Shown here: positions 4,226 to 4,266 of the stretch, in pieces | How the letters are laid out: each line of letters starts with the position of its first letter | Position numbering within the stretch: the stretch's first letter is position 1 | Sequence record: PQ438391.1 | DNA length: 64,000 nt | Source of the DNA: Escherichia phage vB_Eco_T-01 | Direction: 5' to 3' (one strand) | Program-made: the position numbers and the translations under genes | The notes under the pieces: generated by a model | Databases searched by the model: none | Told to the model about the DNA's origin: nothing | Seen by the model: only the letters and a program-made list of their open reading frames with translations

Positions 4226-4236
4226 AAATAATAAAT

Positions 4237-4261
4237 ACCCTTATCTATTTAAGGTAAGGGT
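4237..4261 (+). promoter_or_regulatory. stem-loop ACCCTTA/TAAGGGT sequestering the gene 49 ribosome-binding region
   Basis: perfect 7-bp inverted repeat with 11-nt loop ending 6 nt before the gene 49 ATG; AATAAATA late-promoter-like element just upstream. Confidence 0.55.
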
Positions 4262-4266
4262 TTATT

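Follow-up and report, generated by a model that had tools for sequence, protein, structure and literature searches.

The T4 gene 49 translational switch in a T4-like phage: hairpin anatomy, covariation and conservation among relatives

Introduction

In bacteriophage T4, the mRNAs of genes 49, e and soc and of I-TevI carry the Shine-Dalgarno (SD) sequence and/or the AUG within an inhibitory helix (Uzan & Miller 2010, PMC3014915). Gene e (lysozyme; McPheeters et al. 1986) is, like gene 49, a late gene within an early transcription unit; its helix hides the ribosome site on long transcripts, and late promoters in the 5' strand of this helix give rise to open ones (PMC3014915). The gene e leader differs from that of gene 49 in its unrelated sequence and its two late promoters; moreover, its structure has been probed directly and an effect of about 100-fold measured. 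The soc leader (Macdonald, Kutter & Mosig 1984) follows the same design and is found in the DNA analysed here too, but its helix lies mainly over the AUG and the beginning of the coding sequence, not over the SD. In the leaders of I-TevI, I-TevII, I-TevIII, segB and Aeh1 mobE (Gott 1988; Gibb & Edgell 2007-2010), a late or middle promoter lies inside a hairpin that sequesters the ribosome-binding site (RBS) (PMC2988022). These homing-endonuclease leaders differ in that they control selfish nucleases, and I-TevI adds protein autorepression at the promoter, of which there is no sign at the present locus.

The leader of T4 gene 49 (Barth, Powell, Trupin & Mosig 1988, Genetics 120:329) shares its late box, hairpin, SD and start codon with the element described here. 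Edgell et al. 2010 (PMC2988022) attribute the sequestration of this ribosome-binding site to Barth et al. 1988; the gene is printed there as "39", but the work cited is the one on gene 49. A first-pass annotation of the present DNA had stated that a hairpin inhibits translation of gene 49 in T4, a statement that the reviews support (PMC3014915, PMC2988022). The DNA in question is a stretch of 64 kb (64,000 nucleotides) from Escherichia phage vB_Eco_T-01, hereafter called the window, in which gene 49 follows the gene pin. For T4, Barth and colleagues are said to have described in 1988 both early transcripts that come from far upstream and a late transcript that starts just before gene 49.

Results

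The gene 49 leader of the window is identical to that of T4

In the window, pin, gene 49, nrdD and nrdG all lie on the + strand according to the ORF list. The features of the locus are given below by coordinates, strand and description, with the basis of each in brackets.

3740-4225, + strand: pin, inhibitor of host Lon protease (ORF list; annotation of T4 and of Shigella phage A2)
4228-4234, + strand: lower stem, 5' arm (AUAAUAA), overlapping the promoter box (minimum-energy and centroid structures)
4230-4237, + strand: late-promoter box AATAAATA, the A(-13) variant of TATAAATA, positions -13 to -6 (sequence)
4235-4236, + strand: bulge of 2 nt (predicted fold)
4237-4246, + strand: upper stem, 5' arm (ACCCUUAUCU) (predicted fold; covariation)
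4243, + strand: predicted late transcription start, an A (end of the box plus 6; inferred from the position of the box)
4247-4251, + strand: loop (AUUUA) (predicted fold)
4252-4261, + strand: upper stem, 3' arm (AGGUAAGGGU), containing both SD candidates (predicted fold)
4262-4268, + strand: lower stem, 3' arm (UUAUUAU), taking in the A and the U of the start codon (predicted structures)
4267-4740, + strand: gene 49, endonuclease VII, 157 aa (ORF)
4423-4425, + strand: codon 53 of gene 49, GTA (alignment; T4 annotation)
4737-6554, + strand: nrdD (ORF list)

A megablast search with 3700-4800 matched 692 phage records, of which Shigella phage A2 was the top one at 99.1% identity; identity to T4 across the same interval was about 97.8%. 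Alignment with T4 gene 49 showed 7 nucleotide differences, every one at a third-codon position, and the gp49 protein was 100% identical to gp49 in several Tequatrovirus records. The window is therefore that of a T4-like phage (Tequatrovirus) but not of T4 itself, because its nrdD, unlike that of T4, is uninterrupted by a group I intron with I-TevII, and no mobC lies between nrdD and nrdG. In T4, pin occupies 46897-47382, which corresponds to 3740-4225 here, with the pin stop codon at 4223-4225. A spacer of 41 nt separates pin from gene 49, and the G+C content of the region is 26%. By its near-identity to T4, pin would be an early, co-directional gene 5' of the hairpin whose transcripts run on into the hairpin.

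Positions 4203-4291 match T4 (NC_000866) base for base, which means that the element is the T4 gene 49 leader itself. Moreover, the 47-nt stretch 4226-4272 was found at 100% identity in 234 GenBank phage records, T2, T4 and T6 among them, and at an identity of at least 90% in 726. At the other end of the gene, gene 49 and nrdD overlap by 4 nt: the gene 49 stop codon shares the sequence ATGA (4737-4740) with the nrdD start, and hence nrdD translation could be coupled to that of gene 49. One related record annotates a middle promoter for nrdD inside gene 49.

The Shine-Dalgarno sequence forms the 3' arm of a predicted 17-bp bulged hairpin

The first-pass annotation had placed AATAAATA at 4230-4237, ACCCTTA at 4237-4243, TAAGGGT at 4255-4261 and the ATG at 4267, all of which are right, and had described a 7-bp stem formed by the two heptamers. 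When 4225-4275 was folded as RNA, this stem was present in both the minimum-energy and the centroid structures; however, it turned out to be only the core of a longer helix of 10 + 7 bp. The predicted upper stem comprises 10 bp (4237-4246 with 4252-4261), including one U-G pair (U4244-G4254), and the predicted lower stem comprises 7 A-U pairs (4228-4234 with 4262-4268), through which the A and the U of the start codon are paired with most of the promoter octamer. The AAGG said to be enclosed by the stem does not lie free within it: A4252-G4254 are paired, and the SD forms the 3' arm. There are two SD candidates, AAGG at 4251-4254 and AAGGG at 4256-4260, of which the latter is the better spaced, 6 nt 5' of the AUG and within the 3' strand of the stem. 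The duplex energies with the anti-SD are weak for both candidates (-4 to -5 kcal/mol).

The folding energy of 4225-4275 was -16.3 kcal/mol, compared with -6.2 ± 2.3 kcal/mol in dinucleotide shuffles (z -4.44; 0 of 200 shuffles as good), and the same helix was retained when it was folded in a 201-nt context. The cost of opening the ribosome site of gene 49 (-15 to +3) was 16.3 kcal/mol, the second highest among the 95 plus-strand ORF starts of the window, for which the median was 5.1 kcal/mol (sd 3.0). A scan of 3900-4600 against Rfam gave nothing close to any gathering score, so the element corresponds to no curated family there.

The late-promoter box is a common natural variant

The octamer at 4230-4237 had been described as one mismatch away from the late-promoter sequence. 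This mismatch does not in itself speak for a weak or doubtful match, since A(-13) is the commonest natural late-promoter variant. Among the 50 late sites listed for T4, not all of which are proven to be active in vivo, 32 have a perfect TATAAATA and 9 have A instead of T at -13 (Geiduschek & Kassavetis 2010, PMC2988020). The late box spans -13 to -6, and -13 is poorly conserved among T4 relatives (Nolan et al. 2006, PMC1524935).

Counted from this box, transcription is predicted to start at A4243, which corresponds to about 46879 on the minus strand of T4 NC_000866 and is nucleotide 7 of the 10-nt 5' arm of the upper stem. Of the 33 distinct relatives described below, 30 have an A at this place, and the corresponding column 14 of alignment A3 (also below) is invariant. 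Positions -5 to -1 after the box read CCCTT, of which 2 of 5 are A/T, whereas T4 late promoters are typically A/T-rich directly downstream of the box (PMC2988020). This stretch is constrained here because it is part of the stem.

The motif WATAAATA occurs at 10 sites in the 64-kb window, counting both strands, compared with 25.4 ± 5.1 in shuffles, that is, with a roughly 2.5-fold depletion, and only three of these sites are on the + strand (4230, 32315 and 53960). Given this depletion, a site located exactly at the hairpin is not a background event. The depletion also suggests selection against stray late promoters in the early region. As a separate observation, the AATAAATA at 53960-53967 lies between motA (53322-53957) and the next ORF (53968) and overlaps the SD and spacer (GAGGAATAAATAATG) there; folding predicted no hairpin at this site.

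The ribosome site is predicted to be closed in read-through RNA and open in late RNA

The accessibility of the ribosome site was compared between a read-through RNA (4167-4316) and the predicted late RNA beginning at 4243. As thermodynamic predictions, the mean probability of being unpaired for the SD at 4256-4260 was 0.001 in the former versus 0.76 in the latter, and the cost of opening 4251-4272 was 17.1 versus 4.05 kcal/mol. The 33 distinct relatives gave a similar picture, with a median opening cost of 14.3 kcal/mol for read-through RNA and 4.1 kcal/mol for the predicted late RNA.

In a time-course omics study of T4, gene 49 RNA falls in the early class and its protein is undetected, while for gene e the RNA is early and the protein late (Wolfram-Schauerte et al. 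2022, PMC9697503 Table S2). Since gene 49 RNA is detected early, read-through occurs in T4; near-identity to T4 suggests that transcripts would likewise read through into gene 49 in the present phage.

The module is conserved with compensatory changes across the family

An IMG/VR scan with gp49 yielded 44 loci, with amino-acid identities from 100% down to 50% and Aeh1-sized genomes included, and six named GenBank phages were added to these. In all 44 IMG/VR loci, a NNTAAATA octamer directly abuts a hairpin whose base reaches the start codon, and the 3' arm of the hairpin carries the SD (GAGG or AAGG), again in 44 of 44. The same module is present in five of the six named phages, namely Acinetobacter phage 133 and AM101, Klebsiella KP15, Aeromonas AS-gz and E. 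coli ECD7. In 33 distinct gene 49 leaders, reaching down to about 44% protein identity, the box adjoins a hairpin that reaches the start codon, and the end of the helix always falls between -6 and +10 of the start-codon A. Aeh1-type loci carry (A/G)CTAAATA, which matches the a/gC at -13/-12 of the published Aeh1 late consensus (PMC2988020).

The sequence of the stem varies among these leaders while its pairing is kept, as in CCCUUA/UAAGGG, GGUUCA/UGAACC, AGUUCA/UGAACU, CACUUA/UAAGUG, CUCUUA/UAAGAG and GAGUCAU/AUGACUC. For scoring, 28 distinct sequences were aligned by plain MAFFT (alignment A3) and the 10-pair helix was evaluated. In A3, 90% of the cells were paired, and in A3 taken together with a model-fitted alignment 90-92%, compared with 36-48% when the partners were slid by 1-3 columns. 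In A3, compensatory double changes occurred at 5 of the 10 pairs, with up to four pair types (CG, GC, AU and UA), all four being seen at two stem positions, and the number of double-change cells was 54 versus 16.9 ± 4.0 in shuffles (0 of 500). A covariance model derived from A3 produced an alignment of its own with the same covariation picture, and its sole match in the whole 64-kb window was 4230-4264. At columns 15-33 of A3, 24 of the 28 sequences have a U-G pair; since this pairing is possible only in + strand RNA, it argues against a DNA cruciform or an antisense structure. Minus-strand scores of the covariance model were about half. Applied to the model-fitted alignment, RNAalifold found just 6 of the 10 pairs, and the energy was weak (-1.93 kcal/mol); three divergent rows of that alignment (L039, L040 and L047) are misaligned, and the explicit pair counts are more informative than the RNAalifold result.

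At the DNA level, homology begins at 4226-4229 in 174 records of the 80-90% identity class, in which pin is unmatched, and other genes (nrdC, hypothetical proteins) lie upstream in the named distant phages. Taken together, these findings indicate that the hairpin travels with gene 49 and not with pin. Judged from these alignments, the edge of the module at 4226-4229 resembles a breakpoint of recombination or mosaicism.

One exception was found. Vibrio phage PG216 (OR538032, KVP40-like; positions 270-350 of locus L053) has a gene 49 with neither a TAAATA box nor an RBS hairpin at its start (-2.4 kcal/mol). Because this gene 49 is flanked by opposite-strand genes, no co-directional read-through from upstream would be expected. 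This exception, a single case with the start codon as presumed, fits the switch model.

The start codon of the nested product gp49' is a minority allele

In T4, gp49' starts at the GTG codon 53 of gene 49, with the annotation "internal start demonstrated and has its own promoter" (AF158101; NC_000866). The gene 49 of the window differs from that of T4 at this point, reading GTA, so a T4-type gp49' cannot begin at this codon here; for the full-length protein, the difference is synonymous. Counted over the 44 loci plus the window and T4, codon 53 is GTT in 28, GTC in 6, GTA in 5, GTG in 5 and ATT in 2. An exact 31-mer was found with the GTA allele in 255 GenBank phage records and with the GTG allele in 92, while exact-pattern IMG/VR scans gave 4 contigs for the GTA allele and 1 for the GTG allele. 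By these counts, the gp49' start is a minority allele even within the genus, unlike the promoter-hairpin module, which is universal among the 44 loci. A gp49' CDS should not be transferred to genomes in which codon 53 is GTA, GTT or GTC.

Other leaders of related design in the window

The soc homologue (32354-32590) is a second example of the design. It has TATAAATA at 32315-32322, and the sequence directly after this box, CACCUGUAAU (32323-32332), pairs with AUUAUGGGUG (32351-32360) over the AUG. The predicted folding energy was -17.5 kcal/mol (z -3.2) for the read-through RNA and -2.2 kcal/mol for the predicted late RNA. The Soc protein here presumably resembles the RB69 type rather than the T4 type.

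Strong hairpins over the SD and/or the AUG were also predicted on the + strand at 34754-34799 (ORF 34791-35414; -20.8 kcal/mol) and at 39945-39987 (ORF 39995-40498; -23.7 kcal/mol). In both, an early-promoter-like element of the GTTGTTTAC... type lies just 5' of, or overlaps, the 5' arm. These two hairpins may represent the same trick with early promoters.

Discussion

The element in front of gene 49 is the already-known T4 gene 49 translational switch, real and conserved. The T4-like arrangement that the first-pass annotation had thought to be conserved is identical to that of T4, and both folding and comparative analysis back it. We consider it highly probable (roughly 85%) that the pin-49 spacer is a compact timing switch for the synthesis of endonuclease VII. 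During early and middle infection, transcripts begun upstream would pass through pin into gene 49, and in this read-through RNA, 4228-4268 would fold as a 17-bp bulged hairpin. Because the 3' strand of the hairpin is made up of the SD, the spacer and the A-U of the AUG, we propose that the 30S subunit could not bind and that gp49 would not be made. In late infection, the gp55-RNA polymerase would recognise AATAAATA (4230-4237) and start at about A4243. The resulting RNA would be without the lower 5' arm (4228-4234) and without 6 of the 10 nucleotides of the upper 5' arm (4237-4242), so that, in the proposed scheme, the hairpin could not form and the ribosome site would be open. In this way, gp49 synthesis would coincide with the need to debranch DNA ahead of packaging. 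In this scheme, that gene 49 is transcribed early and that the helix is inhibitory are points taken over from the T4 literature, which would hold here by analogy, while the late start site and the difference in translation are those that the model would predict for the present phage.

Other readings of the stem-loop have to be weighed against this switch. A Rho-independent terminator or attenuator that ends pin transcripts and limits early read-through into gene 49 and nrdD is an unlikely main or additional function of the hairpin. A loose consensus scan does pick out 4237-4261 together with TTATTATGTT as resembling a terminator (4 G-C pairs, tail UUAUUAUG), and terminators are annotated in GenBank for fPS-90 (L054, 628-674), fPS-2, Kha5h, ATK47 and ATK48, probably as automatic predictions. 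However, the U tract of UUAUUAUG is interrupted, G-C pairs make up only 4 of the 10 in the stem, and none of the 33 distinct relatives has at least 6 U in the 8 nt after the full helix (median 2). Furthermore, a terminator needs none of the features that are conserved, namely the SD in the 3' arm, the helix end at the AUG and the box on the 5' arm, and gene 49 RNA is seen early in T4, so read-through happens. A partial terminator as a minor second role in the T4 subgroup is possible and would be compatible with the switch. Another idea is that the stem-loop serves mRNA stability or processing, as a protective hairpin at the pin 3' end or as a site of nuclease cleavage, and contributes nothing specific to the translation of gene 49. 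Its sole support is the position right after the pin stop codon (4223-4225), which is typical of 3' stabilising hairpins; but the hairpin travels with gene 49 while the upstream genes differ, and in every leader compared its helix stops somewhere from -6 to +10 relative to the gene 49 AUG and is joined to the late box, which leaves this reading with very little probability.

Less probable still is that the inverted repeat acts as DNA, in the form of a cruciform or an operator at the late promoter, for example as a target of endonuclease VII or of a repressor. The idea suggests itself because the promoter of a structure-specific nuclease carries an inverted repeat here, and I-TevI, with its autorepression, binds an operator that overlaps its own late promoter (PMC2988022). 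The conserved U-G (24 of 28), however, would be a mismatch in DNA, with an A-C mismatch on the other strand, and the free variation of the stem sequence with pairing kept argues for an RNA helix rather than a sequence-specific operator. As for a chance hairpin beside a chance A/T-rich octamer in an A/T-rich spacer, short A/T motifs are indeed common in a region of 26% G+C, but the fold has a z of -4.4, the octamer is depleted 2.5-fold and compensatory changes run across the 28 aligned sequences, so that coincidence deserves almost no weight. On the covariation, the U-G pair and the linkage to gene 49, none of these last three readings (stabilisation of the pin 3' end, a cruciform or operator in the DNA, coincidence) was retained as the main explanation.

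Annotation of the element in GenBank is inconsistent: it is a terminator in fPS-90 and the other records named above, but a T4-late promoter with a 1-bp mismatch in vB_EcoM_ASO78A (MZ726795; L055, 263-270).

Because the mechanism was described for T4 in 1988 and in standard reviews, the switch of a T4-like genome brings no new biology. What is added here is limited to the corrected anatomy, the strong covariation support across Straboviridae and the point concerning gp49'. In the reviews, which show conservation for genes e and 25, no description of family-wide conservation of the gene 49 switch was found. Since the comparative evidence for an RNA helix is clean, the locus makes a good positive control for structure-finding pipelines.

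More tentatively, and with somewhat less than even confidence, we suggest that an ancient module of about 40 nt, consisting of the late box, the start, the SD helix and the AUG, has moved with gene 49 through most Straboviridae lineages as its upstream neighbour changed, that gp49' is lineage-specific, being absent from the present phage and the majority of relatives, and that in the T4 subgroup the helix may be a partial terminator that insulates pin from 49/nrdD. For the phage itself, the element would confine a structure-specific nuclease, which cuts branched DNA, to the late packaging period despite the location of its gene in an early operon.
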